A stretch of DNA of 64,000 nucleotides from Elusimicrobia bacterium GWB2_63_16 (GTDB lineage Bacteria > Elusimicrobiota > Elusimicrobia > Elusimicrobiales > UBA9959). The position numbers and the translations under genes are program-made. The notes below the pieces were generated by a model. It ran no database searches and had not been told where the DNA came from. It saw only the letters and a list, made by a program, of their open reading frames with translations. The DNA lies in the NCBI GenBank assembly GCA_001799715.1, contig MGTZ01000020.1:11115-75114 (forward strand), read 5' to 3'. Below, one piece after another: positions 18,072 to 58,290 of the stretch. The first letter of the stretch is position 1, and every line of letters begins with the position of its first letter.

Positions 18072-18074
18072 TTT

Positions 18075-24857: not shown

Positions 24858-26452
24858 TTGTCGAACTTGTAGCCGCGCGTCACGGCCTGCCTGCGTATGG
24901 AATCGATCATGGCCTTGTCCAGCGTGGAGGCGCCGGCGGCCTTCTTTTCCTCGGCCGCGATATGGGCCTTGCGCTGCGTCTGCAGGCGGGCTATCTCGGC
25001 CTGCAGCTTGCGGCGCTCGGCCAGCTTCTGGTCCAGATATTTTTCGCGCTCGGCCTTGCTCATCTTCTGCAGTTCTTCGGGCAGGCTCTCGGTCTTGAGC
25101 TGGTCCTTTTTCATTTTACCGCTCTCCAGCGCCGAGACGGCGTCCCAGGAGGAGTCGGCCTCGGCCACGGCCGGGGCCGCGTTGGACTGGTAGGCCGCGC
25201 GCTCGGCGGCCACGGAGGCGCCGGCGCCCATCACCTTTGAGAACACGCTGCGCTTCTCTTCCATCTTGTTCCTGCCGGAGGCGCCGTAGGCCACGTAGGT
25301 GTCGTTGAGCTGGCTGCTGAGCTGCGCTATCCGGTCGTCCTGCGGGGCGGTTACGGCGTAGTCGGCCGCGCCCTGGTCTATATTGGTGAAATCGCCCTCG
25401 GCCAGGTCGGCCCCGGACTTCCACTGCGTGGCTATGCCCTGCTGGCGGGGCCCGCAGAAAATGGTGTTGACGAAGATGTTCTTGGCCTTGGCCTTGGCCA
25501 CCGCGTCCTGGAACGGCACGGCGCCCTGCGTGAACGGCTCGTTGCCGGCTATGAAAATGACTTTATAGACGTCGGACTTGGGGCTCCACTTGAGCTCCTC
25601 CACGGCGGTCTTTATGGCCAGGCCGCAGTACTCGTCCCCGCCGTTGGTGGTGAGGGCGAACAGCTCCTTGGCCACGGCGTCGAGGTCGGTGGTGAAAGGC
25701 ATGACCTGCCGCAGCCAGCCTTTTTCAGCGCCCAGGCCGGAGTTGCCGTACTCGTAGAGGGCCACCTCGATGCGGGGCCTGGACCCGCTCTTCTCGGCGG
25801 TGACCAGCTCGTTGACGATCTTCCAGAGCTGGGTGCGGGCCTGGTTGATCAGGCCGTCCATGGAACCGGAGGTGTCCAGCAGTACCGCCACCTGCACCAG
25901 CGGCTTGGAGCCGAAGTCCTGCGGCGGTTTTACGGTAACCGCGGCGGAGTCCTTCCAGGTGCGGCGCACGGCCAGCGAGGCCGCGGCCAGGATCTTGCCG
26001 GTCTCGGTCTCCACCGCTCGGGCGTTGACCTCGGTCTCACCGTCGGAGAGGTCGTTGAGCGTACCTGTTACCACGGCGTCCGCCCCGAGCTGCTTACCCA
26101 GCTTGCGGGCGGTCTCCTCGTCGATGGCGCCGGAGGCCTGCAGGTTGAGCTCCTCCATCACTTTCTTGAGCAGGCCGCGCTCGACCAGGACTATCTTCTT
26201 CTTCTGGGCCAGCAGGGTGGTGAGGCGCTCCTGTATGATGACCGGCCCGTCGGAGGCCTTTTCGCTGGTGTAGGGGAAAGCCAGGACGGCCAGCTTGAGG
26301 CCGGGCCGGCTCTTAAGGCCTTTGGCCAGGCTGTCGGCGAGGTCCGAAAGTTCGCGGGTGGCGGGCGCCTGCGTTTTGGCCGGGGCCGCGGAGACTGCCG
26401 GAGACGGCGCGGCCAGGCCGAAGATGATGGAGAACGCGAGGATCTTGCTCAT
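24854..26452 (-). CDS. Secreted FlgO/CsgG-like domain + VWA-domain protein
   Basis: N-terminal LAVLAF..LVERG.L..V.EEL..LG..LGADAVVTG..NARAV..ETGKIL; MIDAS LDTSGSM, TNGGDE, IAGNE. Confidence 0.8.
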   Translation of the reverse strand: MSKILAFSIIFGLAAPSPAVSAAPAKTQAPATRELSDLADSLAKGLKSRPGLKLAVLAFPYTSEKASDGPVIIQERLTTLLAQKKKIVLVERGLLKKVMEELNLQASGAIDEETARKLGKQLGADAVVTGTLNDLSDGETEVNARAVETETGKILAAASLAVRRTWKDSAAVTVKPPQDFGSKPLVQVAVLLDTSGSMDGLINQARTQLWKIVNELVTAEKSGSRPRIEVALYEYGNSGLGAEKGWLRQVMPFTTDLDAVAKELFALTTNGGDEYCGLAIKTAVEELKWSPKSDVYKVIFIAGNEPFTQGAVPFQDAVAKAKAKNIFVNTIFCGPRQQGIATQWKSGADLAEGDFTNIDQGAADYAVTAPQDDRIAQLSSQLNDTYVAYGASGRNKMEEKRSVFSKVMGAGASVAAERAAYQSNAAPAVAEADSSWDAVSALESGKMKKDQLKTESLPEELQKMSKAEREKYLDQKLAERRKLQAEIARLQTQRKAHIAAEEKKAAGASTLDKAMIDSIRRQAVTRGYKFDK

Positions 26453-42409: not shown

Positions 42410-45400
42410 ATGAAGAAACTCGCGGTATTCCTGGCTTTTTTTGCTTTTTTCAAGGGGGGGGCGCTGGCCTTGGTCCCCTCGAATGTCCATTTTGATTACA
42501 ATACCTCCGATTCGGTCAGCGTTTCCTGGGATCCTTACGCCGGCCCCGGGTATTGGGCCGTCCTAAGCGACTACGAAGACTTCTCTACGTGGATCTCGAG
42601 CGCCCCGCTAGTTACCTCGGACGTAACGCGCCTCTACACGGGCCTGAAGGCCAACACCACCTACCATTTCAAGATAAAATTCTCCGACCAGGACGACAGC
42701 CAGTATTCCGCGCCCATTTCCACGGCGATACCCGCCGTACCGCCCTCCCAGGTCTCTTTCCCGGAAGTCTACTATTCCAGCGTCAGCGCCCAGTGGAGCA
42801 CCCTCGAGAATTCGCCGTCCTCAGAGTACCAGGCCGAAGCCGCCATGGACCCGGCTTTCACGCTGAACGTCTCCTTCTCCAGCGGCGCCGTCTCCGGCGC
42901 GGTGTTAGGCGGATTTACCCCTGATACGACGGTATACCTGCACGTACGGACTTTCGGCCTGACGGGAGCGGACAGTCCGTTCTCGGCGGCGCCGTCCACC
43001 GTGACGCTGGCCTATCCGCCGGGCAGCGAGGCTTATGCCCTGGTCTCCTCCACCGGCCTGTCCGTCTTCTGGGACGGCAACGGCAACCCCGGCTGGACCA
43101 AATATGAACTGACGGTTTCCACCGAGGAAGGCTTCGCCACGGTCAACTATTCCACCGCCCTGCCCGTCAATTATTACGAGGCGGCCGGCCTGCTGCCCAA
43201 CACCACCTACTATTTCAAGGCCCTGGCCGTGAACGGTTCCGGCATACGCACCGGGTATACCGTCTTCGGGGCCACGATGACCTATGCCGCCGCCCCCGGC
43301 GCTACCGCGCCCGCTCTGGACGCCGTCACCGCCACCTCGGCGGACGCGCACTGGCTGGGCGGCGACAACCCCGGCTTCACGGAATATTACGTGCAGGCCA
43401 GCACGGCCGCCGATTTCACCGGCCTGGATTACGGCCCCGGCACCTGGCTGGCGGGGGCCTACCGCAGCGTTACCGGGCTGGAGTCCGGCCTGACCTACCA
43501 TTTCCGCGTGCGGGCCCGCGACGCCCTGGGGCGCCCCAGCCCCTGGCTGGAGCTGGGCAGCGCGGTCACGCCGGCCGGGGCCGACACTACCCCGCCCTCG
43601 GTGACCGACCTGCAGGGCGGCGACGACGTGTGGCGCGGCGCCGCGGGCGGTTACTACATGGTGCATTTCTCCGACCTGGGCGCCGGACTGGACCGTTTCC
43701 AGGTGAGGGTCGCCACCGGCCCGGCCGGCAGCGGCACCGTGGTCTACGACTGGACCGACGCGGTCACCGGGATAAACGCCGCCGTTTACGACCAGGACTG
43801 GCCGCTGCCGGCGGCCGTCTTCGGGGCTATAGCCGAGAACGTGACTTCTTACGTTTCCGTCAGGGTCTACGACCTGGCCTCTCCGGCCAACTTTACCGTC
43901 AAGGAGGACGCCTTCTACGTTCTGCGCGACACCACCCCGCCGACCATAACCAATGCCGCGGTTTCACCCGCGGGCTGGCTGGCGGCCGATCCGGGGGCGG
44001 TCTTCGACGTGGATTTCGCCGACTCGCTGGCCGGCCTGGCCGCGGCCAGCTACAGCGCCGGTTCCGTCCCGGGCCTCGCCGGGGGGGACATACTGGGCTG
44101 GACCGCCGTGCCCGGCTTCGCTGCGGGCCCCGCCCATACCGCGCTCTGGGGCGTGGACTTCGGCGCGCTGCGCGACGGCGGCACAAACTATATCAGCGTG
44201 CGGGCAGTGGACGCGGCCGGCAACGCCAGCGTTCTGGCCGACGTGTTCAGGATACTCAAGAATACCGTGGGCCCGGCCGTCAGCATCGCGGCCCCTGCCT
44301 CCGCCTACGTGTCTACGGTGACGCTGGTAACCGGAGTAGCGGCCCCCATGACCGAGACAGATCCAGTGGCCGGCGTGCAGGTGTCGCTGCAGGAACTCTC
44401 CAGCCCCAACTCCTACTATTTCGACGGGGCGGCCTTCTCCTCCGCCTCGCCGGTCTGGCTGGCCGCCGCCGGCACGCTCTCCTGGTCCTACGACGCCTCC
44501 ACCGCGCCCTTCGCCGCCGGCGTGCAGTACCGGGCCGCGGCCCGCGCCAGCGATACCGACGGCCTGCTGACCGCGCCGCCCTACCCCAATGTCTCTTTCC
44601 GCCTGGACCAGGTGAACCCGACGGTCTACGTCTCCACCCCGCTCGCCGATTCCTCCGTCTACTCTCTGGATGCCGTAGAAGGCACCGCGGCCGACGCCGG
44701 CGGAGCCGGCCTGGGGGCGGTGGAGATCTACGTCAGCCGGGCTCTGGACGGGAAGTGGTGGAACTTCGTCGCCGGCTCCTGGGGCGACGTGGCCGTGGCC
44801 AGCGCCACGCCCGCCGCCGCCTCCTGGTCCTATACCCCGGCGGCCGGCCTGCGCGGCGCGCTGGCCCACGACCAGCAGTATTTCATAGCGGCCGTGGCCA
44901 GGGACGCCGCCGCGCCCGCCAACACTTCGGGTCTCGGCCTGGCCGGTTCCACCATAACCTGGAAGGACACGCTGGCCCCGGAGACCGTGACGGCCTTCGC
45001 GCCGTCCACGGGTTCCGCGCCGGGCCGGGTGGACCTGCGCTGGACCTTCGCCGGCGACGACGGCGGCGCGTTGGCGCTGACCTACGGGCGTTTCGCCGTG
45101 CAGTACTCCACCTACGCCGGGGCCGTGTTCAGCACCCAGACGGCCCAGGTGATGATCTCCACCGCCATGGTCCCGGCCGGGGCCCAGCTCTCCTACACGG
45201 TGGCCGGCCTGGCACCCGAGACCACCTACTATCTGCGCCTGTGGGTGCAGGACGACGCCGAGTTCTGGTCGGCCCCGTCGCCGCTGGCCTCTACCCTCTC
45301 CGGCGACCGCCTCAATGACACCATCTCCGGCTCCGTGCGCACCCCAGCGGGCGCCGGCGTCACCGGCGTTATGGTGGACGCCATCACCAACCTGGGCGCC

Positions 45401-46156
45401 GTGGCGGCCTCCGCCTACACGCTCGACGACGGGCTGGGCTCCTTCTCGCTGACGCCGCTGCCCGACGGCATCTACCGCGTTCGCGCCACCTGGCTGCAGG
45501 ACGGCTTCTCCAACTCCATCGCCAAGGACCAGATCCCGATGGGCTACGCGGACACCAATTTCCTGCTCTCGCTGGACTACGAGCTGGCCAGCGTCTCCGG
45601 CTCGCTGCCGGCCGCCGCGCCTTCCGGCCTGCGGCCGTCCGCGGCGGGGGGACAGGCGCAGTTGTGGCGCGGGGCCAGCCTGCTGGCCACCGCGGCCGCC
45701 GACGCTTCCGGGCGGTTTTTTATAGGCAATCTCATCCCCGGGCCGTACACCCTGCGCGTCAGCGCCGACGGCGCGGCCTGGAAAACTCTGGAGATCTCCC
45801 TGGCGCCCGGCCAGGAACTGCGCCTGCAGCCGCTGGGCGCCCTGGCGGACAAGGCCGGCACCTATGTCTATCCGAACCCGTCCTCGTCGCACGTCGTCTT
45901 CCGCGTGGCCACGGCCATCTCTCCGGTCAGGTTGAAGCTCTCCATCTTCGCGCTCGACGGTACGCTGGTGAAGGCCACGGAGTACGGCGAAGCCGGCTGG
46001 ACCTACACGGACGCCGCCACCGACGTCTACGAGTACCGCTGGGATTTCTCCGGCAGCCGGCCGGCCAGCGGCGTCTATTTCTGCACGGTGAAGCTGAAGG
46101 ACGAGCTCGGCGGCGGCGCCGAGACCCTGACCAGGAAATTCGCGGTCATAAGGTGA
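42410..46156 (+). CDS. Large secreted FN3/Ig-repeat protein with T9SS-type-A-like C-terminal domain
   Basis: Signal peptide; four GL.(P/A)NTTY.F-type FN3 units; DTTPP Ig-like units; carboxypeptidase-regulatory-like domains; TYVYPNP..IFALDGTLVK..W..PASGVYF..TRKFAVIR. Confidence 0.8.
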   Translation: MKKLAVFLAFFAFFKGGALALVPSNVHFDYNTSDSVSVSWDPYAGPGYWAVLSDYEDFSTWISSAPLVTSDVTRLYTGLKANTTYHFKIKFSDQDDSQYSAPISTAIPAVPPSQVSFPEVYYSSVSAQWSTLENSPSSEYQAEAAMDPAFTLNVSFSSGAVSGAVLGGFTPDTTVYLHVRTFGLTGADSPFSAAPSTVTLAYPPGSEAYALVSSTGLSVFWDGNGNPGWTKYELTVSTEEGFATVNYSTALPVNYYEAAGLLPNTTYYFKALAVNGSGIRTGYTVFGATMTYAAAPGATAPALDAVTATSADAHWLGGDNPGFTEYYVQASTAADFTGLDYGPGTWLAGAYRSVTGLESGLTYHFRVRARDALGRPSPWLELGSAVTPAGADTTPPSVTDLQGGDDVWRGAAGGYYMVHFSDLGAGLDRFQVRVATGPAGSGTVVYDWTDAVTGINAAVYDQDWPLPAAVFGAIAENVTSYVSVRVYDLASPANFTVKEDAFYVLRDTTPPTITNAAVSPAGWLAADPGAVFDVDFADSLAGLAAASYSAGSVPGLAGGDILGWTAVPGFAAGPAHTALWGVDFGALRDGGTNYISVRAVDAAGNASVLADVFRILKNTVGPAVSIAAPASAYVSTVTLVTGVAAPMTETDPVAGVQVSLQELSSPNSYYFDGAAFSSASPVWLAAAGTLSWSYDASTAPFAAGVQYRAAARASDTDGLLTAPPYPNVSFRLDQVNPTVYVSTPLADSSVYSLDAVEGTAADAGGAGLGAVEIYVSRALDGKWWNFVAGSWGDVAVASATPAAASWSYTPAAGLRGALAHDQQYFIAAVARDAAAPANTSGLGLAGSTITWKDTLAPETVTAFAPSTGSAPGRVDLRWTFAGDDGGALALTYGRFAVQYSTYAGAVFSTQTAQVMISTAMVPAGAQLSYTVAGLAPETTYYLRLWVQDDAEFWSAPSPLASTLSGDRLNDTISGSVRTPAGAGVTGVMVDAITNLGAVAASAYTLDDGLGSFSLTPLPDGIYRVRATWLQDGFSNSIAKDQIPMGYADTNFLLSLDYELASVSGSLPAAAPSGLRPSAAGGQAQLWRGASLLATAAADASGRFFIGNLIPGPYTLRVSADGAAWKTLEISLAPGQELRLQPLGALADKAGTYVYPNPSSSHVVFRVATAISPVRLKLSIFALDGTLVKATEYGEAGWTYTDAATDVYEYRWDFSGSRPASGVYFCTVKLKDELGGGAETLTRKFAVIR

Positions 46157-46163
46157 GAACGCT

Positions 46164-47903
46164 ATGAAGACAAGACTGGCCCTGATCTGCTGCCTGCTGC
46201 TGCCCGCGGCCTCCCGCGCGGCCAACATAACCGGCACCGGCGCCTCGGTGCACGACTCCGCCGGCGCGGCGCGCAGCACCTTCTCCAACTCCGAGACCAT
46301 CACGCTGCGCCAGAGCGTGAACATCGCCGAGAACAGCCCTACGAGCGACAGCGTGGATTTCACCTTCGAGATCCTAAACGCCGCCGGCGCCGCGGTATTT
46401 ACCCACGCCGGCAACTCCGCGCCCGGCACGCAGGGCGGGGCGCAGACTCAGCTGGCGGGTATCTCGATCAACTCCTTCTACTCTTCCCCGGGCAACTATA
46501 CCTTCCGGGCCAAGGCCACGCTGGACGCCGAGACCGTAACGCAGACGGCCGCTTTCCTGATCTCCAGCCCCAACATCACGCTGATCTACCCGCCCAACGG
46601 CGCGCGCGGCCTGTCCGACAACCCGCTCACCTTCCGCTGGACGGCCAGCGGGGCCAGCCGCTACCGCGTAACCGTGGCCGACAACGCCAGCCTCTACAAC
46701 GAGCTGCACTCGGCGGTGAACGCCGGCGAGAGCTATTATTCCTATCCCGCGGATCCCTCGGAGCCCAGGGAACGGCTCGTGCCCGAGCAGGTCTACTACT
46801 GGAAGGTGGAGGGCCTGGACGCCAGCAACAACAAGATCTCGGAGAGCAACGTCTATACTTTCTCGCTCAAGGGGCAGGCTTCCTCCACCACCCGCAACGT
46901 GGCCGTCACCCTGCTGGAGGTGACCACCCCGGCGCTGGATTTCGAGAAGCCGATCAATTTTAAGGCGGTACTCTACAACAGCGGCTCGGCTACCGAGTCC
47001 AATATCTCGGTGAAGATGTCCCTGGGCGGCCTGTCGGCCCAGGATTCGCCCAAACCGGTGATGACCATAGGCCCCGGCGAGCAGGTGGCGCTGACCTTCA
47101 CCGCCTTCATGCCGCCCGGCCAGGAGCAGGGTCTGGCCGCGGCCTGCGCGGACCTGTTCGACGACAACATGCCGGACAACTGCAAGACCAGATTGATCGG
47201 CAAGGACGCCGGCACCACTACTGCCGCGGGGGCCGGCCGCAAGCTGACCTACGACGAGATGTTCCAGGCCATCCTGCAGCGGCTCGGGCCCGAAGCGGCC
47301 AAGGCCCTGGAGGGGTACACTTTCGAGAGCCTCTCCTGCGCCAACTGCTCACAGGACGAGCTGGCGCTCATCATCGCCGCGCTGATAAGCGGCGAGGCGC
47401 AGCTCATAGGAGCCTCCGTCACCGAGACCGGCGGCGCCGAAACCACCCTGGGCGCCAACACCTCCGCCGCGGCGGACGCCGGTTCGGACTCCGCGGGCGA
47501 GGAGGCCGTGCCCGAGGAGACCTCGCTGGACCTGTCCCCGCTGAAGAACGACATCCCCGGAGAATGGAGCGGGTACACCGAGGCGCGGGGCAAGGAAGCC
47601 TCGACTATAGTGATACGGAGCAAGAAGGAATGGCGCAAGCTGTGGCAGACGCTGTCCAACGAGGAGGAGCCGGACGTGGACTTCGGCGATTCCATGGTGA
47701 TAGGAGTCATCTCCGGCGCGCTGGACCGGGCGGCCGCGGTACGCCTGCTGGGCAGCCGCAAAACGGACGACGGGATGGCCTTCGATTATTACCAGATAGA
47801 GACCCCGCGCGGAGCCGAGGCTTCCAAGGCGGCCTATATTTTCCGTCTCTACCCGCGCTCGGACGACAAGGTTTCCTTCTCGCGGGTGGACGTCCGCAAG
47901 TGA
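46164..47903 (+). CDS. Secreted Ig/FN3 + CARDB-like + PrcB-C-like protein
   Basis: LIYPPNG..TFRW..YYWKV; LYNSGSA..IGPGE..DNC (CARDB-like); VIRSKKEWRKLW..PDVDF..MVIGV (PrcB C-terminal-like). Confidence 0.6.
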   Translation: MKTRLALICCLLLPAASRAANITGTGASVHDSAGAARSTFSNSETITLRQSVNIAENSPTSDSVDFTFEILNAAGAAVFTHAGNSAPGTQGGAQTQLAGISINSFYSSPGNYTFRAKATLDAETVTQTAAFLISSPNITLIYPPNGARGLSDNPLTFRWTASGASRYRVTVADNASLYNELHSAVNAGESYYSYPADPSEPRERLVPEQVYYWKVEGLDASNNKISESNVYTFSLKGQASSTTRNVAVTLLEVTTPALDFEKPINFKAVLYNSGSATESNISVKMSLGGLSAQDSPKPVMTIGPGEQVALTFTAFMPPGQEQGLAAACADLFDDNMPDNCKTRLIGKDAGTTTAAGAGRKLTYDEMFQAILQRLGPEAAKALEGYTFESLSCANCSQDELALIIAALISGEAQLIGASVTETGGAETTLGANTSAAADAGSDSAGEEAVPEETSLDLSPLKNDIPGEWSGYTEARGKEASTIVIRSKKEWRKLWQTLSNEEEPDVDFGDSMVIGVISGALDRAAAVRLLGSRKTDDGMAFDYYQIETPRGAEASKAAYIFRLYPRSDDKVSFSRVDVRK

Positions 47904-47946: not shown

Positions 47947-48675
47947 ATGACGAAAACAATGAAGATGGTAGCGGCCTTCGCCGCGGCGGGGGCGCTGGCG
48001 GCCTTCGCGCAGCCCGCCCTTTGCGCGCCCCGCGTGGCCGCGGTGGCGGTATTCATAACGGGCGACGTGCAGGTTAAGCGCACCGGTGAGTCGGCCTTCT
48101 CTGAACTGAAGGTCAACGACATGCTGTACGCCGGCGACAACATCAAGACCGCGGCCGCCAGCCGCGCCGGACTGGTCACCAAGGCCGGCGCCGAGGTGCG
48201 CCTCAACGAGAACTCCAGCTTCGAGATCTCGTCCCAGGGAAAGCTGCGCGACATGCTGAACCTGTCCGTGGGCCAGCTCTGGACCCGGATGCTGCACAAG
48301 ATGGCCAAGATCAACGTGCGCACCCCGTCGGCCGTCTGCGCCGTGCGCGGCACCGAGGCCGACATCGAGCAGCGCAGCCTGCTGACGGTGAAAGTCTACG
48401 AGGGTCATGTGGACGTGCAGAACTCGCTGGGCAAGCAGTCCCTGCGGGCCGGCCAGATGACCACGGTGTCCGGCGCAAACGCCGCGCCCGAGGCCGCCAA
48501 GAAGATGTCCGGCCAGGACGCCGGCAAGTGGCAGGAAGAGATCAAGGTGAGCGACTACAAAAAATTCATCAGCCTGCTCGAGGAGAGCGCCGCCGGCGGC
48601 AAAGACCTCAAGACGTCCGTCAAGATGCCGGACGGCTCGGTGAAGCAGATAGAAGGTTCGCTGAAGAAGAAGTAA
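47947..48675 (+). CDS. Secreted FecR-domain protein
   Basis: GDVQVKR, GDNIKT, VRLNENS, VRTPSAVCAVRGT, VKVYEGHV, LRAGQ; cleavable signal peptide. Confidence 0.85.
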   Translation: MTKTMKMVAAFAAAGALAAFAQPALCAPRVAAVAVFITGDVQVKRTGESAFSELKVNDMLYAGDNIKTAAASRAGLVTKAGAEVRLNENSSFEISSQGKLRDMLNLSVGQLWTRMLHKMAKINVRTPSAVCAVRGTEADIEQRSLLTVKVYEGHVDVQNSLGKQSLRAGQMTTVSGANAAPEAAKKMSGQDAGKWQEEIKVSDYKKFISLLEESAAGGKDLKTSVKMPDGSVKQIEGSLKKK

Positions 48676-48704: not shown

Positions 48705-49631
48705 ATGAAACCTGGCATTATACTGGGAGTGCTGCTGCTGGCACAGGGGGCGCCGCTGCGCGCCGCCGGCAGCTCCGCGGCGCAGTTCCTCAGCCTGGGC
48801 TTCGGGGCCCGGGCGCTCGGCATGGGCGAGGCGTACACGGCGGTGTCCGATGACATCTCAAGCGTCTACTATAACCCGGCCGGGCTGGCCTCCGGGGGAG
48901 AGGGGCGGGAGCTCGCTTTCTCGCACGCCTTCCACCTGGAGGACACCTCGGTCTCGCAGGCCGCCTATATGCGGCGGCCCTTCGCGGCGGCGGTCACCTA
49001 TTTCTCGGCCGGGGAGCTTGAGGGCCGCGACGCCACCGGCGGCCTGACCGGGGATTTCACGGCCAGGGACGTGGCGGCGCAGCTGTCCCGCGGCTTCAAG
49101 CTCGGGCCGCTCGATGCCGGTCTCACCGGCAGGGTGATCAGCCAGCGCATACGCTCCAGCGGGGCCACTTCCCTCTCGGCCGACGCCGGGCTGCTGTACC
49201 GCTTCGCGGGCACGCCCTGGTCGCTGGGGGCGGCGGTGACCAACCTGGGCACCCGGGTCAAGTTCGAAGAGGAGAGTTTTCCTCTGCCGCTCAGGTTCAA
49301 GGCCGGCGCGGCGGCGGCTTTCAAGGGCGCGCGGCTGCTGGTGGCGCTCGACGCGGAGTTGCCGGCCGACGGCCCGGCGCTGGCGCGGCTCGGGGCGGAA
49401 TACACCGGGCTGGAAGGCATAGCGCTGCGCCTGGGCTGGCGCACCGCGGCCTCGGGGCAAAGGGACGCGATACTGGGCAGGGGTTTCGACGAGACGTCAG
49501 GGGCGGCAGGCCTGTACGGCTTTTTCGCCGGCGCCGGTTTCGCCTACGCCGGCTTCAGCCTGGACTACGCCCTGCTGCCGTACGGCGACCTGGGCACGGC
49601 GCACCGGTTCGCGGTAGGCATGAAGTTCTAG
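48705..49631 (+). CDS. PorV/PorQ (UPF0164, FadL-like) family outer-membrane barrel
   Basis: QFLSLGFGARALGMGEAYTAVSDDISSVYYNPAGL; LDYALLPYGDLGTAHRF..KF terminal Phe; ATG after GGAGG. Confidence 0.82.
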   Translation: MKPGIILGVLLLAQGAPLRAAGSSAAQFLSLGFGARALGMGEAYTAVSDDISSVYYNPAGLASGGEGRELAFSHAFHLEDTSVSQAAYMRRPFAAAVTYFSAGELEGRDATGGLTGDFTARDVAAQLSRGFKLGPLDAGLTGRVISQRIRSSGATSLSADAGLLYRFAGTPWSLGAAVTNLGTRVKFEEESFPLPLRFKAGAAAAFKGARLLVALDAELPADGPALARLGAEYTGLEGIALRLGWRTAASGQRDAILGRGFDETSGAAGLYGFFAGAGFAYAGFSLDYALLPYGDLGTAHRFAVGMKF

Positions 49632-49725: not shown

Positions 49726-52700
49726 ATGAAGAAACTTATACTCGCCATCGCCATTTTCCTGGGGGCCTCGCCCCTCTGGGCCGAAGTTATGACCTACCAG
49801 GGCCGCCTGAAGGAATCGGACATTCCGGTGAGCGCCAACCGCGTCTTCCTTTTCGAATTCTGCGACGCGGAGACCAGCGGGATCTGCCATACCACGCCTT
49901 CCGGCTACCAGTCCTTCGCCGCGCAGAACGGTCTGTTCAAATCCACCTTCACCATCCCCGCGGCCGACCTGTCGCAGGGGCAGTGGTACCTGCAGGTCTC
50001 GGTGGGCCCCGATATCCCCGGTATCGTGGTTCTCACGCCCCGCGAGCGCCTTACCGCCGTGCCGTACGCCGTCTTCGCGTCCTCGGCTGGCTACGCTTCA
50101 TACGCCGCCGGGGCGGTGCAGAAGACCGGCGACACCATGAGCGGTCAGCTGACGCTGGCCGGCTCCACGCTGACGGTCACCGGCAGCGAGTTCTCCGTAG
50201 GCGGCAGCACCTTCACGGTGAAAGCGGGATACGTGGGCATAGGGGTTGACACCCCCAGTGTGCCGCTTACGCTGGGATACAATAATTTCGCCGGCTGGGA
50301 ATATTCCTCATCGAATCATAGCGTTGCCCACAAAATAGGCAAAACTTCCGACGGCGCCGGCCCGCTGCAGTTTGTTACCACCTTCAACCCCGGGGAATCC
50401 GGTGAGGTTTTCCGTTTCTCCTCCATGTACCGCGGCAATCTCCTTTCCATGCTGGCCGGAGGCGGCGTGGGCATAGGCACCGATATGCCCAGTGCGACGC
50501 TGGATATAATTTCTACCGGCACCGCGGCCGATGTGTACGCGCAGATCTGGCGCGATTCTACCGGCCTTGTCGTAGGCTCTATGAGCGCTACGGGCTTAAT
50601 GCAGGCGGTAAAGTTCGTCGGCGACGGCTCCGGCCTCTCCGGCGTTACAGGGGCTACCGACGATACAAAGGTGCTCAAGACCGGCGACACCATGACCGGC
50701 CCTCTGGCCGTCATTGTCGATACCTCCGTGGATTCGTTCGACATTCAGACTAACGGTATAAATATTTCCACGTCGGGCGCCATTACCACGGTCGGACTCG
50801 GGCTTGGCACGGCTTCGCCAGATACGCGGGGCCAGGGCGCGGCGGATCTCCAGACCCAAAGGACCGCCGCTGACCAGATAGCCTCGGGCCAGTTCTCTTC
50901 TATCTCGGGCGGCGCCCTGAATACCGCCGCGGGAGAGTACTCCGTGGTGTCCGGCGGCTATAAGAATACCGCCGCCGGCCAGGTTTCCAACGTTTCCGGC
51001 GGCCAGTTCAACACCGTTTCAGGGATCAACTCCTCCGTTTCGGGAGGTCTGTTCAATGTCGTGGCCGGTTCTAACTCGGCGGTTTCCGGCGGCGCCTACA
51101 ATACCGTGACCGGCACCTCGGCGGTGATCGCCGGCGGCGAGTATAATGTCGCGTCAGGTAAACACTCCGCGGTGGGGGGCGGTTTTCTCAACACGGCTTC
51201 TTCCTTGTATTCGGCCGTGGGCGCCGGCACGGGCAACACCGCTTCCAACACCTACTCTTACGTTGGCGGCGGCTCCGCCAACCTGGCTTCAGGCTATGTC
51301 GCCGTGGTCGCCGGCGGCGCGGCCAACCGCGCGGACGGATACCGCGCGGCGGTCGGCGGCGGTTATGATAACCGGGCTTCCGGGCAGGATTCGGTAGTCC
51401 CGGGCGGCTATAACAATACGGCGGAAGGCAATTATTCCTTCGCCGCCGGCGCGAAATCCAGCTCTACCGCGCAGGGCGCCTTTACCTGGCAGGACAGCGG
51501 CGGCACCACCATTAACCTCGTCAACGGCGTGACCGACCGCACGGTGTTCAAGAGCCGCGGCGGTTTCCTCGTGACCGGTTCCACCAATACCTCGATGACA
51601 GGCACGCAGGACCGCGGCGTGATCATGACCGGCAACGGCCTCTTGGGCATAGCCATCGACTCGCCCCAGGCCGCGTTGGACGTGGTGTCCACCGGCACCG
51701 CTTCCGACGTCTACGCGCAGATCTGGCGCGATTCTACCGGCCTTGTTGTAGGCTCTGTGAGCGCTGCGGGCTTCATGAAGGCGGTAAAGTTCGTCGGCGA
51801 CGGCTCGGGGCTTACCGGCGTGACCGGGGCTTCCGGCACGGATACTTCGAAGGTGCTCAAGGCCGGCGACACGATGACCGGAGACCTGACGATGGCGCTG
51901 GGTTCCACCATCACGGTTACCGGCAGCTCGTTCAGCGTGGGCGGCGCTACGCTGGCGGTAAGGGACGGGTTCGTGGGCATAGGAACGGCCAGCCCCGCCG
52001 CCCCGCTGACCATCGCCGGCGTGGTGGGCAACGAGATACAGTTCCCCAGCGCCGGCGGAGACATCCAGATCTTCGGTACCGGCAGCCCGGACCAGTTCCT
52101 GATCGGCGGCGCCAACACCTTCGAGGTCAATATCGCCGGCACCTACCCGATGCGGGTAAGCAATACCGGCGTCGCCGTGGATACCGTGACCGCCAACGGG
52201 ACCATCAGCGCGGCTCGCTACTATATCTCCGGCTCCCCGGCGCTGGTCTTCAGCGGCCTGGGCAATATGCTGGCCGGCAAGTCCGCCGGCGCCGTTACGA
52301 CGAGCGGCGACGCCAATACCATGGCGGGCGCCTACGCCGGAGGCTCCAATACCACCGGAGGCAGCAACGCGATGGTGGGCGCTTATTCCGGCTACAGCAA
52401 TATCTCCGGCTCCTATAACGCCCTCCTGGGCAAGGACGCCGGCTACGGCTCTTCCGGTTTTTCTTTCTCGAAAGCCGCGATGGTGGGTTACCAGGCCGGT
52501 TACGCGCTGATGCAGGGGGATAACAACGTATTTCTGGGCCACCGCGCGGGCTACAGCGTAACGGTCGGGAGCTCCAACATCGTCATCGGAGCCGACATCA
52601 CTACGCCGGAAACCGACTCCGATTACACCCTGAACATAGGCGGCGTCCTCCACGGGGACCTGGCGGCCGGGACCATCGGCATCTCCACGCGCGCGCCGCA

Positions 52701-55700
52701 GGCGGCGCTGGATATAGTGTCCACCGGCACTCTTCCTACGCAGATGGCCCAGATCTGGCGCGATTCGACCGGCCTTATCGTCGGTTCCATGAGCGTGACG
52801 GGGGCCATGCAGGCGGTGAAATTCGTGGGCAACGGCGCCGGCCTGACCGGCGTTACGGCTTTAGACGACACCAAACTGGCGCTGACCGGCGGCACTCTGG
52901 GCGGCGTCCTGAACATGAACGGCAACTTCCTGTCGGGTGTCTCCACAATCACCATGCTCAGCGGCAGCATAGCCATAGTGCCGCCCGGCACGGGCGGGAG
53001 CAATATCGGTTACGGTATTTCCATCGGCTCAAACTCCTACAACAACTATACCAGCGGTATCGGCCTGGGGCATTCCGCCCGGGATAACTACACTGGCGGC
53101 GTGGGCATCGGCGATTCCGCCTTCGATAATTACAGCTACGGCGTGGGTGTGGGCAATAACGCCACGAGCAACAACACTTCCGGCGTGGGCATCGGCAACG
53201 GCGCCTCCGGGAACAATAACTTCGGCGTCGGCATAGGCGCGCAGGCTTCAGCCAACCCGTACTACGCGGTAGGGGTGGGCGCCTATTCGCAGAATAACAA
53301 GGGCTATGGCGCGGCGCTGGGCGCCTATTCCTACGCGTCGTCCTCGGCTACCGCCCTCGGCGCGCAGGCCAGGGCCAACGCGGAGCTCAGCCTGGCGCTG
53401 GGCTACGGCACGGTCAACAATTCCACCGGCACGGCCAGCTTCGGCGCCTACGGCGTCAATGCCGCCTATTACCAGGTTAACGGCGGCACCGTATTGAACG
53501 TGCTGCCCGGCATAGGCAGCCTGGCCGTTGGCGTGGCGGCGGCGGCTTCGGATACCGGCGCTTATAATCTTTTCGTGGGCTCGGCTGCGGGCCACGGACA
53601 TAGCTCCGGCTCCAATAATGTGATGCTGGGCTACGGAGCCGGCTTTCAGAACACCACCGGCGCGGGCAATGTTTTTATAGGCGCGGCCGCCGCGAATACG
53701 AATATCAACGGCGACCAGAATATCGTGATCGGCTACAACCAGGGCACTTCCGCGCAGGGAGCTTCCAACGAACTGAATATCGGCGGCTTGATCTTCGGTC
53801 AGATCGGCGCTAAGACCGTCGGTATCTCCACTCGCGCGCCGCAGGCCGCGCTGGACGTGGTGTCTACCGGCACGGGGGCCGGCTTTTACGCGCAGATCTG
53901 GCGCGATTCCACCGGCCTCGTGGTCAGCTCCGTGAGTTCCCAGGGTATCTATTACGGCAACGGTTCCGGCCTGACCAGCCTGCCCGTGCCCTCCGGGGTG
54001 GTGCAGAAGGCGGGGGACTCTATGACCGGGGCTCTGTATCTGGACGGCACCGGCGGCAGCAATGTTTACCTGAAGATCACGCAGACCAGCGGCGGCAACC
54101 TTATTTCCGCAGGCCTGACCGGCGGCGCCACGGCGCTATTATACGCTGATGGCAGTTCTATCGGGCTGTTTAGCGAGCAAGTCTCTCACCGCGTGGGGAT
54201 CGGCGCCGGCATGACCGAGGCGCTGACCGTCACCCAGAACAGGGTGGGCGTGAACAATACTTCGCCTTTCTATACGCTGGACGTCAACGGCCCGGGCCGC
54301 TTCGCGGACCAGATCGTAGCCGGCGGCAGCGTGACGGTCGCCGGCAGCGCCTTCTCGGTGGGCGGCTCCACTTTCGTGGTGAACGCCGGCCGCGTGGGCA
54401 TAAACTGGACTACGCCCGAGGCCGCGCTGCAGGTAAGCGGGGGGGCGAAGTTCCTCTCCAGCGCCGGCACGTCCTATATACTTACGGCGGGCTCCTCCGC
54501 CAGGCCGGACATGTTCTTCGTCTCCAGCGGCGGCATCGTCGGGGCCGGTGATTTTACCGATATTTTCGTGGATACCTACGCGGTGGTCAGCCTGGCGCCG
54601 GTGCTGAAGTCCGGCGCCGACGGCGCGGTGGGCCTTACCGTTTACGCGCGCACGGATAAAGCCGCTACCGTTACCGCCACCGGCCCCGATCAGGTACTGG
54701 CAGGCGGTAATTTCGAAGCCGTGGCGGGCGGCGACGATTCTGTGACCCTGCTGGCGGCTGTCCGCACGCAGCTGCGGCGTGAAAGCGTCGGCGTCGGCGT
54801 AGTATCCAAGGCCTATGGCCTACTCGTAGACGATATCTATACCGATTCGGGCGCGGGCGTCATAACCGACACCTACGGTATTTACATCGGCGACCAGACC
54901 TCCGCTTTCGGCGGTACGCAGACCAACTCCCCCTACGCCATCTACTCTCAGGACCCCGGGGCCAAAGTGTTTTTTGCGGGTAACCTGGGACTGGGCATGT
55001 CTAACCCGGGGGCCCGCCTGGATATCGCCGCGATAGCCGACGATCCCGCTACTATGGGGCAGATCTGGCGCAATTCCCTCGGCAATATAGTCTCTTCCAT
55101 GAGCGCCACCGGCGTGATGATGTCCGCGAAGTTCGTCGGCGACGGCTCCGGGCTGACCAACGTCCCCGGCGTACAGAAGACCGGCGACACCATGACCGGG
55201 CAGCTTACTATATTCGGCTCGTCTCTCACTATCCGCCCCGCTGCGAGCGACGCCTATTCGCTGTACGTAAGTTCCGCCGACGGCTCTACCCCGGCGCTTA
55301 CGGTAAAGCCCGGCGGCGAACTGTACACCGCCGGCAGGGCGGGCATCGGTTCAGCCGCCCCGGCCGAAGCGCTGGACATATCCGGCAGGGTGTTGATATC
55401 CACCAATGCCGGCAATGTTTCTACCGACGGACTGTTCTCCAACGGTTCTGGCGGCATCGTGTTCCAAAGCGCCGGCACCACTTACCTGAAGGCGTCTTAC
55501 GGCGGCGGCTATGTCGGCATCGGCCCGAGCGCCAACGTGTACACCGATACCATGTCGCCGAAGGTGCAGGCCAGGGGCAGCATGAGCGTGGGTTCCGGCT
55601 ACAACACTTCCCATCCCCCGGCGGAAAGCCTGGTGGTCCAGGGCCGCCTGGGCATAGGTACGCCCGCGCCCGACGCGGCGCTGAGCGTGGTTCAGGCCGA

Positions 55701-58290
55701 TGTCGCCGCCTCATCGTACACTGTGCATATCGGCACTTCGGCCTCCGTCTACCACCTGGTGGTCACTACCGCCGGCTGGGTGGGCCTTAACACGCAGCGG
55801 CCCCAGGCCCCGCTGCACCTGACCGCGGCCACCAAGGACGAGGGCATAGTTGTCGAGCACAACAGCAATACTGCCGAAGGCTCCTACCTCGCCCTGCTCA
55901 AGGCGCGCGGCACGGCGCAGTCGCAGTCCCTGGTAGCCGAGGGCGACAATCTGGGCGTGCTGGCTTTCGGCGGCTATAACGGCGCCTCCGGCGACCCGTT
56001 CCCGACGGCGGCCGCGATAATCGGCCGCGTGGACGGCGCTCCTACCCTGAGCCCGGCCCTCGATATGCCCGGCCGGCTGGAGTTCATGACCGCCGCGGAC
56101 GGCACTGCTGAAACCGTGACGCGCATGGTAATACGCGGCGACGGCGGGGTCGGTATCGCTACCGGCACCCCGCAGGCTATGCTGGACATACTCTCCACCT
56201 CCACTGTCGCCCAGATCTGGCGCGACGCAACAGGCGTGGTGCGCGCCTCAATGACCGCGGACGGCACGCTCTACGCTGCGGTGGGCTCTGCGGTGCAGAA
56301 GAGCGGGGACAATATGACCGGTCCCCTGACCATAACCCCGGACCCCGCGGTCTATATCTACGACCTTATGACCAACGGCATCCAGATATCCACGGCCGGG
56401 TCCATAGTTACGGTAGGCGTCGGCAACGGCTCCATGGGCGCCGGTCAGCGCGGCATGGGCGTGGTAGACCTGCAGACGGCCAGAGCGACCATAAGCCAGG
56501 TGGCGCTGGGGGACTTTTCCACGCTTAGCGGCGGCGCCTACAACACCGCCTTCGGTTCCGGCACGGTCATGGCCGGCGGCCTTTATAACATAGCCGCGGG
56601 CACGCTGGCCGTGATCTCCGGCGGTCAGAATAACTACGCGGACGCCCGCTTCAGCGCCGTGGGCGGCGGCAAGGGCAATACGGCCAACGCGGACTACGCC
56701 GGAGTCTTCTCCGGGTCCGGGAACCTTGTGGCCGGCGCAGGGGGATTCATAGGCGGCGGCCAGGGGAACACTGTGGAGTTCAATTACGGCGCGATAGCCG
56801 GCGGCATGAACAACCTGGTGGACGTGGCGGCCGATTACGGCTTCGTGGGCGGCGGCTACGGCAATAAAGCCGCCAACACGCACGCCGCGGTGGCCGGGGG
56901 CTGGACTAACGCCGCCAACGGCATGGAAGCCTTCGTGGGCGCGGGCTACATGAACGCCGCCGACGGCGAGAAATCGGTGGTGGGCGGCGGCAATAATAAT
57001 ACGGTAACTGCTTTCGGTCTCTATTCGGCGGTAGTAGGCGGCAGCAGCAATACCGTGGCCGGCGAGGCCAGCTTCGTGGGCGGCGGCAACACCAATGTCG
57101 TCTCAGGCAAAAACTCCGTGGTGCCGGGCGGCCTTCGCAATACCGTGACCGCGATCCAGTCCGGCATAATGAGCGGCAATGATAACGTCGTTACCGGGAC
57201 CGCTTCAGTAGTCTCGGGAGGCGATCATAACGTTGTAAGCGGACAGGATTCGGTGATAGCCGGCGGCGCCAACAACAGCGCCAAAGGCTGGTGGGCCACC
57301 ATCCCCGGCGGCTACCAGAACTCCGCCGTGGGGAACTACTCGTTCGCGGCCGGCTACAAGTCCAGTTCCACGGCGGCGGGCGCGTTCACCTGGGCCGATA
57401 GCCAGGGAACAGAGGTTCTCAACGGGGTGCCCGACCAGGTCCGTTTCAAGGCTGCCGGCGGTTTCATGGTCTCCACCTCAGCCGTCTATTCCACTCCCGG
57501 CTTGTACGTCAACGAGTTCAATGCGGTGGGCATCGGCACCGCCACCACCCGCAGCGACCTGACGCTCTTTGTCAACAGGGGCGCCAGCCAGAATACGTTC
57601 CTGCTGGGCAGCGAAAGCAAAGGCCTGCGCCTGCGCGATACCGGCAGCCTCATAGATATAGAATCGGTGGGAAGCGATATTATCTTCAACGCCAGCGGGC
57701 AGGGCGCCTATTTCTACCAGGGTAAGGTAGGCTTCGGTACCACCGCCAGCGGCGTGGTCGGAACAAAAGTGGCCATAGTGCAGCCTTTCCTCACCACCGA
57801 CCCGTACGTGCTGAAGGTGGGCACCGGCACGAACCCGACCAGCCTCACCGTATCCACCTCGGGCGTGATAGGGATGCCCATGCAGTCCATGGCCAGGGCA
57901 TATGGCGCCGCGAGCGTCGGAGTGCCCTCCTCGACTTTGTGGCAGCCCGTCAGCGTCGACGCGAAGTTTGAGGACACCCAGGGTGAATATGATACCACCA
58001 CTCAAAAGTTTACCGCCACGACGGGCGGCCTCTACCTGGTGGCGGGCCATGTATGGATAGCCGCCAACGCGACGGGGTCCCGCGGTATAGGCGTCGGCAT
58101 CAACGGATCGGCTACTCCGCTGAAGCAGGCGACCGATGTCAGGGCGGCAGGCGTTTCTACCAGTGACCTCACTCTCAGTTCCGTAATAAGGCTGCTGCCA
58201 GGAGAGTTCCTCCGGCTTATGGTCTACCAGGATTCCGGTTCCACGCTGAACGTCGGCAACGCCACGTTTGACGTGGTGAAATTGAATTAA
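49726..58290 (+). CDS. Giant secreted phage-tail-fibre-like (probably trimeric) adhesin with C-terminal C1q-like domain
   Basis: Signal peptide; TYQGRL...NGLF...LTPRERLTAVPYA N-domain; repeated KxGDTMTG and VGIGT..P.A.LD shaft motifs; Gly/Asn beta-solenoid repeats; C-terminal YDTTTQKFTA..GLYLV..SSVIRL.PGE.L.L.VYQ. Confidence 0.8.
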   Translation: MKKLILAIAIFLGASPLWAEVMTYQGRLKESDIPVSANRVFLFEFCDAETSGICHTTPSGYQSFAAQNGLFKSTFTIPAADLSQGQWYLQVSVGPDIPGIVVLTPRERLTAVPYAVFASSAGYASYAAGAVQKTGDTMSGQLTLAGSTLTVTGSEFSVGGSTFTVKAGYVGIGVDTPSVPLTLGYNNFAGWEYSSSNHSVAHKIGKTSDGAGPLQFVTTFNPGESGEVFRFSSMYRGNLLSMLAGGGVGIGTDMPSATLDIISTGTAADVYAQIWRDSTGLVVGSMSATGLMQAVKFVGDGSGLSGVTGATDDTKVLKTGDTMTGPLAVIVDTSVDSFDIQTNGINISTSGAITTVGLGLGTASPDTRGQGAADLQTQRTAADQIASGQFSSISGGALNTAAGEYSVVSGGYKNTAAGQVSNVSGGQFNTVSGINSSVSGGLFNVVAGSNSAVSGGAYNTVTGTSAVIAGGEYNVASGKHSAVGGGFLNTASSLYSAVGAGTGNTASNTYSYVGGGSANLASGYVAVVAGGAANRADGYRAAVGGGYDNRASGQDSVVPGGYNNTAEGNYSFAAGAKSSSTAQGAFTWQDSGGTTINLVNGVTDRTVFKSRGGFLVTGSTNTSMTGTQDRGVIMTGNGLLGIAIDSPQAALDVVSTGTASDVYAQIWRDSTGLVVGSVSAAGFMKAVKFVGDGSGLTGVTGASGTDTSKVLKAGDTMTGDLTMALGSTITVTGSSFSVGGATLAVRDGFVGIGTASPAAPLTIAGVVGNEIQFPSAGGDIQIFGTGSPDQFLIGGANTFEVNIAGTYPMRVSNTGVAVDTVTANGTISAARYYISGSPALVFSGLGNMLAGKSAGAVTTSGDANTMAGAYAGGSNTTGGSNAMVGAYSGYSNISGSYNALLGKDAGYGSSGFSFSKAAMVGYQAGYALMQGDNNVFLGHRAGYSVTVGSSNIVIGADITTPETDSDYTLNIGGVLHGDLAAGTIGISTRAPQAALDIVSTGTLPTQMAQIWRDSTGLIVGSMSVTGAMQAVKFVGNGAGLTGVTALDDTKLALTGGTLGGVLNMNGNFLSGVSTITMLSGSIAIVPPGTGGSNIGYGISIGSNSYNNYTSGIGLGHSARDNYTGGVGIGDSAFDNYSYGVGVGNNATSNNTSGVGIGNGASGNNNFGVGIGAQASANPYYAVGVGAYSQNNKGYGAALGAYSYASSSATALGAQARANAELSLALGYGTVNNSTGTASFGAYGVNAAYYQVNGGTVLNVLPGIGSLAVGVAAAASDTGAYNLFVGSAAGHGHSSGSNNVMLGYGAGFQNTTGAGNVFIGAAAANTNINGDQNIVIGYNQGTSAQGASNELNIGGLIFGQIGAKTVGISTRAPQAALDVVSTGTGAGFYAQIWRDSTGLVVSSVSSQGIYYGNGSGLTSLPVPSGVVQKAGDSMTGALYLDGTGGSNVYLKITQTSGGNLISAGLTGGATALLYADGSSIGLFSEQVSHRVGIGAGMTEALTVTQNRVGVNNTSPFYTLDVNGPGRFADQIVAGGSVTVAGSAFSVGGSTFVVNAGRVGINWTTPEAALQVSGGAKFLSSAGTSYILTAGSSARPDMFFVSSGGIVGAGDFTDIFVDTYAVVSLAPVLKSGADGAVGLTVYARTDKAATVTATGPDQVLAGGNFEAVAGGDDSVTLLAAVRTQLRRESVGVGVVSKAYGLLVDDIYTDSGAGVITDTYGIYIGDQTSAFGGTQTNSPYAIYSQDPGAKVFFAGNLGLGMSNPGARLDIAAIADDPATMGQIWRNSLGNIVSSMSATGVMMSAKFVGDGSGLTNVPGVQKTGDTMTGQLTIFGSSLTIRPAASDAYSLYVSSADGSTPALTVKPGGELYTAGRAGIGSAAPAEALDISGRVLISTNAGNVSTDGLFSNGSGGIVFQSAGTTYLKASYGGGYVGIGPSANVYTDTMSPKVQARGSMSVGSGYNTSHPPAESLVVQGRLGIGTPAPDAALSVVQADVAASSYTVHIGTSASVYHLVVTTAGWVGLNTQRPQAPLHLTAATKDEGIVVEHNSNTAEGSYLALLKARGTAQSQSLVAEGDNLGVLAFGGYNGASGDPFPTAAAIIGRVDGAPTLSPALDMPGRLEFMTAADGTAETVTRMVIRGDGGVGIATGTPQAMLDILSTSTVAQIWRDATGVVRASMTADGTLYAAVGSAVQKSGDNMTGPLTITPDPAVYIYDLMTNGIQISTAGSIVTVGVGNGSMGAGQRGMGVVDLQTARATISQVALGDFSTLSGGAYNTAFGSGTVMAGGLYNIAAGTLAVISGGQNNYADARFSAVGGGKGNTANADYAGVFSGSGNLVAGAGGFIGGGQGNTVEFNYGAIAGGMNNLVDVAADYGFVGGGYGNKAANTHAAVAGGWTNAANGMEAFVGAGYMNAADGEKSVVGGGNNNTVTAFGLYSAVVGGSSNTVAGEASFVGGGNTNVVSGKNSVVPGGLRNTVTAIQSGIMSGNDNVVTGTASVVSGGDHNVVSGQDSVIAGGANNSAKGWWATIPGGYQNSAVGNYSFAAGYKSSSTAAGAFTWADSQGTEVLNGVPDQVRFKAAGGFMVSTSAVYSTPGLYVNEFNAVGIGTATTRSDLTLFVNRGASQNTFLLGSESKGLRLRDTGSLIDIESVGSDIIFNASGQGAYFYQGKVGFGTTASGVVGTKVAIVQPFLTTDPYVLKVGTGTNPTSLTVSTSGVIGMPMQSMARAYGAASVGVPSSTLWQPVSVDAKFEDTQGEYDTTTQKFTATTGGLYLVAGHVWIAANATGSRGIGVGINGSATPLKQATDVRAAGVSTSDLTLSSVIRLLPGEFLRLMVYQDSGSTLNVGNATFDVVKLN

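Follow-up and report, generated by a model that had tools for sequence, protein, structure and literature searches.

The stretch analysed here, referred to as the window, covers 64,000 nucleotides (nt) of the genome of Elusimicrobia bacterium GWB2_63_16 (contig MGTZ01000020.1, positions 11,115 to 75,114) and contains a gene for a giant fibre protein, which in all likelihood encodes a cell-surface fibre of the mosaic adhesive trimer (MAT) type. The fibre gene (P0001) spans positions 49726 to 58290 on the + strand as one open reading frame (ORF) of 2854 amino acids (aa), with the ATG at 49726 and a GGAGG motif 8 nt upstream. A Sec-type signal peptide can be read off the sequence at residues 1-19 (MKKLILAIAIFLGASPLWA; 49726-49782, +); it is free of cysteine, and therefore a lipobox is absent. 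Directly behind it lies the N-domain (residues 20-128; 49783-50109, +), for which alignment, AlphaFold2 (AF2) modelling and hhalign point to a beta-sandwich homologous to the N-domain of MAT fibres. In an initial annotation, the motif MTYQGRL...FLFEFC...NGLF...LTPRERLTAVPYA was quoted as following the signal peptide, and it is found exactly in residues 20-128. The sole two cysteines of the 2854-aa protein, C46 and C54, both lie in this domain, 8 residues apart (window positions 49861-49887), and a disulphide between them is likely, since C46 is invariant across an alignment of 18 N-domain sequences.

The fibre body is composed of 16.6% Gly, 12.1% Ala, 10.2% Ser and 9.4% Thr. The shaft measures 2,600 aa and contains, at 50488-56322 (+), six copies of a node module (PxAxLD[IV] ... 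QIWRDxTG ... G[DN]GSGLT ... KxGDxMTG), which are about 350-390 aa apart, with the motif at residues 273, 665, 1009, 1390, 1779 and 2163. A left-handed beta-roll resembling the head of UspA1 is recognized at residues 420-645 (50983-51660, +; PDB 3pr7, E 7.2e-24; 3ntn, E 4.2e-6), and a second beta-roll of the ice-binding LbR type at residues 2441-2536 (57046-57333, +; Pfam LbR_Ice_bind, E 2.1e-9 with the whole protein and 1e-12 with the last 500 aa; PDB 3ult, E 3.1e-4). The last ~133 residues (57889-58287, +) are predicted to form a C1q/TNF-like head, for which the Pfam C1q match itself is sub-threshold (E 0.051). The AF2 model of the last 175 aa, built on an alignment of just 5 sequences, has a pLDDT of 74.5, and its residues 43-175 are well predicted. 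In Foldseek, this model gave 410 matches at E<=1e-3, the best being 4f3j (E 2.8e-8, TMt 0.66); among the matches listed, all are C1q/TNF-type folds, with 4qpy at rank 15. The C1q-like head that had been noticed at the end of the protein is thus borne out by the model and the structure search.

Searches of the whole fibre gave nothing besides LbR_Ice_bind in Pfam and zero matches in NCBIfam. For the last 500 aa, Pfam searched at E<=5 found LbR_Ice_bind and the sub-threshold C1q alone, with no autotransporter anchor, C-terminal sorting domain (CTD) or S74 domain. A sorting domain of the type IX secretion system (T9SS), either of type A (TIGR04183/PF18962) or of type B, was found neither in the whole fibre nor in its last 500 aa at E<=5. 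The initial statements that the fibre has no autotransporter barrel, CTD or S74 chaperone, and no evident export signal, agree with these searches, and the cysteine-free signal peptide speaks against a lipid anchor.

The N-domain is not restricted to this protein. A word-based search with it gave 20 proteins with 42-71% identity, and every named one comes from metagenome-assembled genomes of Elusimicrobia. The alignment of the window N-domain with 17 homologues (43-75% identity) has 19 invariant columns, and a motif of this kind is, judged from the alignment, far beyond chance. The profile of these 18 sequences, searched against 1.84 billion cluster representatives (50% clustering), matched 25,898 of them at E<=1e-3, 1,239 at E<=1e-10 and 111 at E<=1e-30; 147 of the 150 matches listed start at residue 47 or earlier, right behind the signal peptide. 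Pfam, NCBIfam and PHROGs gave nothing below E 0.03 for the N-domain and the 17 homologues (best PHROG E 0.033), and the 30 nearest ESM Atlas clusters are unnamed and have no common Pfam family. On sequence grounds, the N-domain is a real and very large family without a Pfam, PHROG or NCBIfam model. Seven ORFs of the source genome (2.87 Mb, 62 contigs, 91% complete) contain this domain; they are 405-2866 aa long (E 9e-48 to 2e-5), and their C-termini are unrelated to one another. A C-terminal Peptidase_S74 domain is present in 4/62 relatives of one of these fibre paralogues.

In the AF2 model built on the 18-sequence alignment, the N-domain is a beta-sandwich (pLDDT 83.3, pTM 0.74). Foldseek against the PDB found no match at E<=1e-3, the best being the secretin pilotins AspS (5wec, E 0.011, TM 0.51) and ExsB (2yjl), and with VIA-align the best of 48,161 chains reached Z 7.2 and none reached 8, which is the chance range. 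The structural matches of the model are too weak for naming a fold family, in line with PMC10769870. The likeness to pilotins was not used in view of the Foldseek E of 0.011 and a Z at chance level. A role of the N-domain as one third of a trimeric membrane barrel, as in an 'inverse' trimeric autotransporter, was rejected, as the model is a globular sandwich and Bd2133 is soluble (PMC10769870).

MATs were described in 2024 as prey-recognition adhesins of Bdellovibrio (Caulton et al. 2024, PMC10769870). All 21 Bdellovibrio MATs share a domain of ~130 aa, conserved and rich in beta structure, straight after the signal peptide, and Bd2133 in its full length was obtained as a soluble fibre on purification. 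Thirteen MATs end in S74 and eight lack it; the tips of Bd2439 and Bd2734 are TNF/C1q-like, with 4qpy named as a match of Bd2734 (PMC10769870). According to PMC10769870, the PDB has no structural homologue of the MAT N-domain, neither the partner of this domain on the surface of the predator nor the export route is known, and supplementary tables 3 and 4 are said to contain MAT-like proteins of other bacteria. The available part of a 2026 review on Bdellovibrio (PMC13689555) adds nothing on export or anchorage.

As the PDB holds no MAT N-terminus, the window N-domain was compared with those of four Bdellovibrio bacteriovorus genomes, which were located by the published 16S primer 842R (PMC11156984). 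Three alignments were used: the window N-domain with its 17 homologues (A1), the wider N-domain subfamily including the paralogue of the source genome (A2), and 30 Bdellovibrio N-domains (A3). A search of the four genomes with the A2 profile gave 15, 4, 13 and 4 ORFs of 522-1519 aa. In one genome, 9/15 of these ORFs end in Peptidase_S74 and one has a phage Collar domain. All five Bdellovibrio ORFs tested match the MAT entries 8OKW, 8OJN/8ONB/8ONC, 8OND, 8OML, 8ON4 and 8OL4 of the PDB; the entry codes were taken from the data-availability passage of PMC10769870 and belong to structures of Bd2734, Bd3182, Bd2133, Bd1334 and Bd2439. Because of the S74 ends and the structure matches, the Bdellovibrio ORFs are, by sequence comparison, MATs in the sense of PMC10769870. 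Their N-domains share the pattern (L)TYQGRI...VSF.FEI...C..YRE...GVFD.PIG...LRVQFHDG.GW..I.P..EIRSVP(Y/F)A. Comparison by hhalign gave a probability of 96.4% for A1 against A3 (E 1e-9, columns 4-97 against 2-130) and of 99.0% for A2 against A3 (E 3.3e-18), and both matches span the YQG motif to the VPYA motif, which is the whole domain. Homology between the window N-domain and the MAT N-domain is established at the level of these profiles. It had been stated initially that a YQGR(I/L)...VP(F/Y)A N-domain heads the Bdellovibrio MATs, and a profile comparison of residues ~20-130 with the MAT N-termini had been suggested; the full-domain match and the pattern in the Bdellovibrio ORFs bear this resemblance out.

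The window fibre shares more with MATs than the N-domain. In both, a signal peptide is followed by the homologous beta-rich domain and then by a long fibre body, and the TNF/C1q-like head of the window fibre corresponds to the tips of Bd2439 and Bd2734, which belong to the subgroup without S74. Both kinds of fibre occur in several copies per genome, among which the N-domain stays constant and the tips are exchanged, as in the seven ORFs of the source genome, and both lack a known outer-membrane export signal and a clear PDB homologue of the N-domain. There are also differences: the host is an Elusimicrobia genome and not a known predator, the window fibre has 2854 aa versus ~1000 aa, and its N-domain is shorter (about 105-109 versus ~130 aa); the greater length of the Bdellovibrio form is due to an insert, which contains a second cysteine. 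In addition, the shaft of the window fibre has UspA1-like beta-rolls, and its gene shares a conserved operon with those of a PorV-like barrel and of CTD proteins, while Bdellovibrio has no such operon. With the type Vc adhesins, such as UspA1 of Moraxella, the window fibre shares the head-type left-handed beta-roll (E 7e-24) and the layout of a long fibre with an adhesive head. However, Pfam found no C-terminal YadA-type anchor in it, and its polarity is reversed, with the conserved base at the N-terminus and the head at the C-terminus.

The fibre gene is part of a cluster of six genes on one strand, with gaps of just 7-94 nt. The first gene encodes a 1248-aa secreted protein (42410-46156, +) with FN3 repeats (fn3, E 3.8e-21), CarboxypepD_reg (E 1.7e-14) and a T9SS-type-A-like CTD, which matches TIGR04183 at E 5.5e-4, below the cut-off, and a custom CTD hidden Markov model at E 1e-13. 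It is followed by the genes for a 579-aa secreted protein (46164-47903, +) with a weak CARDB match (E 0.0064) and a weak PrcB-like C-terminus (denti_PrcB, E 1.1e-4, far below the cut-off), a 242-aa FecR-domain protein (47947-48675, +; Pfam FecR, E 5.8e-13) and a 308-aa outer-membrane barrel of the PorV/PorQ family (48705-49631, +; NF033709, E 7.7e-43, 147.3 bits, cut-off 90). PorV-family proteins are FadL-like barrels that act as carriers and anchors of CTD proteins. The barrel of the window scores 99.6 with the PorQ equivalog model (cut-off 220) and 50.3 with that of PorV (cut-off 250), and because both scores are below the cut-off, it is classed by these models as a member of the family but not as an equivalog of either. 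The fibre gene comes next, after a gap of 94 nt, in which a terminator scan of the + strand found no terminator-like site. The last gene, which begins 41 nt past the fibre gene, encodes a 1537-aa protein with Kelch (Pfam Kelch families), FN3 and CarboxypepD_reg domains and a T9SS type-A CTD (58332-62945, +; TIGR04183, E 1.3e-6, 28.3 bits, cut-off 23). Both large proteins that flank the fibre in the cluster thus carry a CTD, and the fibre itself has none.

Elsewhere in the window, a 1119-aa peptidase of the M6 type whose end is CTD-like (Peptidase_M6, E 2.5e-31) is followed 3 nt later by a 349-aa PorV-like ORF (14712-19124). The window also contains an IS200-like (Y1_Tnp) transposase gene at its start (375-1091), a 1974-aa bacterial alpha-2-macroglobulin (6943-12867; MG2, A2M, bMG10) and, on the - strand, a 532-aa protein with weak CsgG-like and FlgO-like matches and a VWA domain (24854-26452).

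The gene order around the fibre is conserved in many Elusimicrobia. Among 60 orthologous loci with an N-domain of the window type (TYQGRLKE), a PorV-like gene on the same strand ends at most 1.1 kb upstream of the fibre gene in 39; of the 21 loci without it, three have less than 1 kb of upstream sequence, which is too short to show one. The block of the 579-aa, FecR and PorV-like genes precedes the fibre in 26/60 loci, in 24 of them together with the FN3-CTD gene, and a Kelch-CTD gene lies 3' of the fibre in four loci (L009, L011, L022 and L046). In six of the 60 loci, a CTD protein is encoded directly upstream of the fibre instead of the PorV-like gene, and in two (L036 and L040) the genes for a CTD protein, a PorV-like barrel and the fibre follow one another.

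Similar neighbourhoods are found around the fibre paralogues on other contigs of the source genome (C20 being the contig of the window, with its cluster of CTD, 579-aa, FecR, barrel, fibre and CTD genes). On C8, a CTD protein, a barrel and a fibre are encoded in this order, with a barrel-fibre distance of 724 nt; on C61, the order is barrel, 197-aa CTD protein and fibre (538 nt between barrel and fibre); on C7, a 196-aa CTD protein precedes the fibre; and on C28, a 568-aa CTD protein precedes the fibre, with a divergent 139-aa CTD protein and a fusion of a barrel and TPR at a barrel-fibre distance of 2,133 nt. In three paralogues, just 0-4 nt lie between the end of a CTD gene and the fibre ORF. 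The small CTD proteins on C61 (3490-4080) and C7 (40148-40735) are ORFs of ~197 aa with a signal peptide, a short body and a CTD-like end, and such proteins may act as adaptors between barrel and fibre. Also, C28:56544-58938 and C60:36580-37559 contain near-pure CTD-like proteins of 139 and 132 aa, each directly before a PorV-like ORF, which on C28 encodes a fusion of a barrel with a TPR-like tail (660 aa). On C21 (29158-48770), a 4534-aa ORF lies behind the gene for a 420-aa N-domain fibre on the same strand, and after it come a 1241-aa CTD protein and a PorV-like ORF. The paralogue on C48 (77723-80623) lies directly behind response-regulator-like and sensor-kinase-like genes, an order that is kept in 26 Elusimicrobia loci (within L068-L102), and these two-component neighbours hint at a regulated expression of this fibre.

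PorV-like and CTD genes are numerous in the source genome as a whole. With phmmer, 24 PorV-like ORFs were found, and NF033709 gave 29 matches versus 15 in each of two Ignavibacteria; about 25 ORFs have a CTD-like end, and behind 16 of the 25 lies a PorV-like ORF on the same strand. In T9SS, anchoring pairs of this kind are PorU-PorV and PorZ-PorQ in Porphyromonas gingivalis and SprB-SprF in Flavobacterium johnsoniae. The resemblance to such pairs lies in a PorV/PorQ-family barrel that is encoded beside large surface proteins; the differences are that the window fibre has no CTD and that the source genome shows neither SprA nor a full-length PorU. SprA_N had no match in the source genome (91% complete) or in a related Elusimicrobiales genome and one match in each of the two Ignavibacteria controls, and the PorU matches in the source genome cover the CTD part alone, while in the controls PorU was matched over its full length (723 and 686 bits). 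With the GldM model, neither the source genome nor the T9SS-positive controls gave a match, which makes this model uninformative. In a search of the literature, nothing on PorV or type IX secretion in Elusimicrobia was found that bears on the fibre or the barrel.

Taken together, the gene most probably encodes a MAT-type fibre, for which attachment by the N-domain and docking on a CTD/PorV-like module are proposed. The fibre would be exported to the periplasm by Sec and would then trimerise; a trimeric state is suggested by the UspA1-head-like segments and the modelled C1q/TNF-like head. It would cross the outer membrane by a machine outside its own sequence, for which neither the fibre sequence nor the family-wide gene context gives a pointer. 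A secretin-type (type II-like) pathway is a tentative best guess for this step, since secretins are present in 5/5 N-domain genomes tested (4, 4, 4, 2 and 4 matches) and the PorV/CTD modules are lineage-specific. On the surface, the fibre would be held by its N-domain, a role that has about an even chance of being right, and the C1q-like head would be its outermost part and serve as the tip that binds the ligand. A possible docking site in Elusimicrobia, though one that we consider doubtful, would be the co-encoded CTD-bearing protein together with its PorV-like barrel, because N-domain fibres repeatedly sit beside CTD/PorV-like modules in this lineage. The PorV-like barrels would serve here as anchors and not as channels, as PorQ holds PorZ and PorV holds PorU, and the most plausible role of the barrel next to the fibre is that of a partner to the CTD protein. 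More speculative still is an anchoring system of Elusimicrobia without SprA and PorU, in which the CTD of each large surface protein has a PorV-like barrel of its own to plug into and the N-domain docks MAT-type fibres on these modules, with the ~197-aa CTD protein as adaptor in two paralogues. If true, the surface receptor of the MAT N-domain would be named, at least in one phylum, and CTD/PorV pairs would act outside type IX secretion.

Several results weigh against this explanation or narrow it. In the MAT comparison, the Bdellovibrio genomes are not of strain HD100, and with HMMER, the match of their domains is mostly limited to the leading two thirds of the profile (E 3e-9 to 7e-4 in the individual genomes), so that the full-length match rests on hhalign; the shaft of the window fibre had no sequence match to the solved MAT pieces in the PDB search. 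In the wider INYQGRLTD subfamily, only 2/77 loci (3 kb flank) have a PorV-like gene, neither within 1.1 kb, and 1/77 has a CTD-like ORF. None of 44 Bdellovibrio loci has a CTD-like ORF, and a Bdellovibrio genome has four PorV-family matches, none of which passes the NF033709 cut-off. Because these genes are missing near the N-domain genes of the wider family and of Bdellovibrio, docking on the CTD/PorV-like module cannot be general for the N-domain family. The linkage is confined to the Elusimicrobia orthologues and the paralogues of the source genome, and the PorV-like gene is therefore a lineage-specific partner at most and not the general route of the family. A search for a universal partner gene beside the N-domain genes of the wider subfamily and of Bdellovibrio found none, the largest clusters being lineage-specific. 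Also, the fibre-adjacent PorV-like paralogues are 29-30% identical to the window barrel versus 35-36% for the CTD-adjacent ones, and the fibre-adjacent barrels do not appear to be a clade of their own. The secretins, finally, occur in 6/14 control genomes as well and are near-universal in diderms, and because they are so common, their presence lends the type II-like route weak support. The initial suggestion that the neighbours offer a candidate route across the outer membrane, with genomic-context statistics as its check, is the weaker part of the initial reading: the linkage is tight in Elusimicrobia, with a PorV-like gene at 39/60 orthologous loci and 5/7 paralogues near PorV-like or CTD genes, but it does not carry over to the wider family or to Bdellovibrio, so that the barrel cannot be the general route.

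The same neighbourhood can be read in other ways. The upstream PorV-like barrel could itself be the outer-membrane route, or a shuttle, for the CTD-less fibre and recognise it through the N-domain. The position of the barrel gene directly 5' on the same strand is kept in orthologous loci at N-domain identities down to ~43%, three more barrel-fibre pairs exist among the paralogues (C8, C61 and the divergent C28), the 94-nt gap shows no terminator-like site, and with neither SprA nor PorU found in the source genome, the PorV-like barrels there would do other than classic T9SS work. Against this, PorV-family barrels are known as carriers and anchors of CTD proteins and are not known as channels for folded fibres. 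Moreover, the rule in the source genome is a CTD gene followed by a PorV-like gene (16/25), and the order of CTD protein, PorV-like gene and fibre in L036 and L040 makes the barrel more simply the partner of the CTD protein. As the linkage is also missing in 75/77 loci of the wider subfamily and in Bdellovibrio, and in six of the 60 orthologous loci the gene of a CTD protein immediately precedes the fibre and a PorV-like gene is missing, a role of the barrel as the route is improbable.

A possible alternative, given about the same modest weight as the docking idea itself, is that the adjacency reflects a surface-protein island, in which envelope genes are co-regulated without contact between their products and the synteny in 39/60 loci is the vertical inheritance of one operon. 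Those 39 loci are orthologous and mostly have the whole gene block, so they are not independent events; with ~24 PorV-like and ~25 CTD genes in the source genome such neighbours are common, and the C48 paralogue, like its orthologues in 26 loci, follows a two-component system rather than such genes. What speaks for a closer association is that at most 3 kb separate five of the seven paralogous fibre genes from a PorV-like or CTD ORF, with contig and gene order differing among the five, versus a random mean of 1.02/7 (0.0009 of 20,000 trials reach 5), although this random-placement null is naive, as surface-protein genes cluster anyway. The CTD genes that end within 4 nt of a fibre ORF in three paralogues and the short gaps of the window cluster point the same way. 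It is very improbable, on the other hand, that the gene encodes a phage or tailocin tail fibre from a prophage remnant and not a cellular surface fibre. The shaft does contain KxGDxMTG motifs, which are common in phage tail fibres; among the Bdellovibrio MATs, one has a phage Collar domain and nine have S74, and C1q-like knobs of phage spikes (9eul and 9k09) are among the Foldseek matches of the head model. However, the fibre has a Sec signal peptide and no S74, its N-domain matched no PHROG family, phage genes were absent from the 32 window ORFs scanned and from the neighbours, and the chromosomal operon with the fibre is kept across many Elusimicrobia.

The reading of the gene as a MAT-type surface fibre means that the MAT N-domain also heads fibres in a distant phylum that does not look predatory, and the window fibre adds an Elusimicrobia case to the MAT-type fibres already described. 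With its 25,898 cluster representatives and no Pfam model, the N-domain family is very large, and defining it as a family would re-annotate many 'hypothetical' giant proteins. Within one lineage, N-domain genes are linked to those of PorV-like barrels and CTD proteins, and this linkage, seen in a genome in which no SprA or PorU was found, yields concrete candidates for the surface anchor of the fibre.

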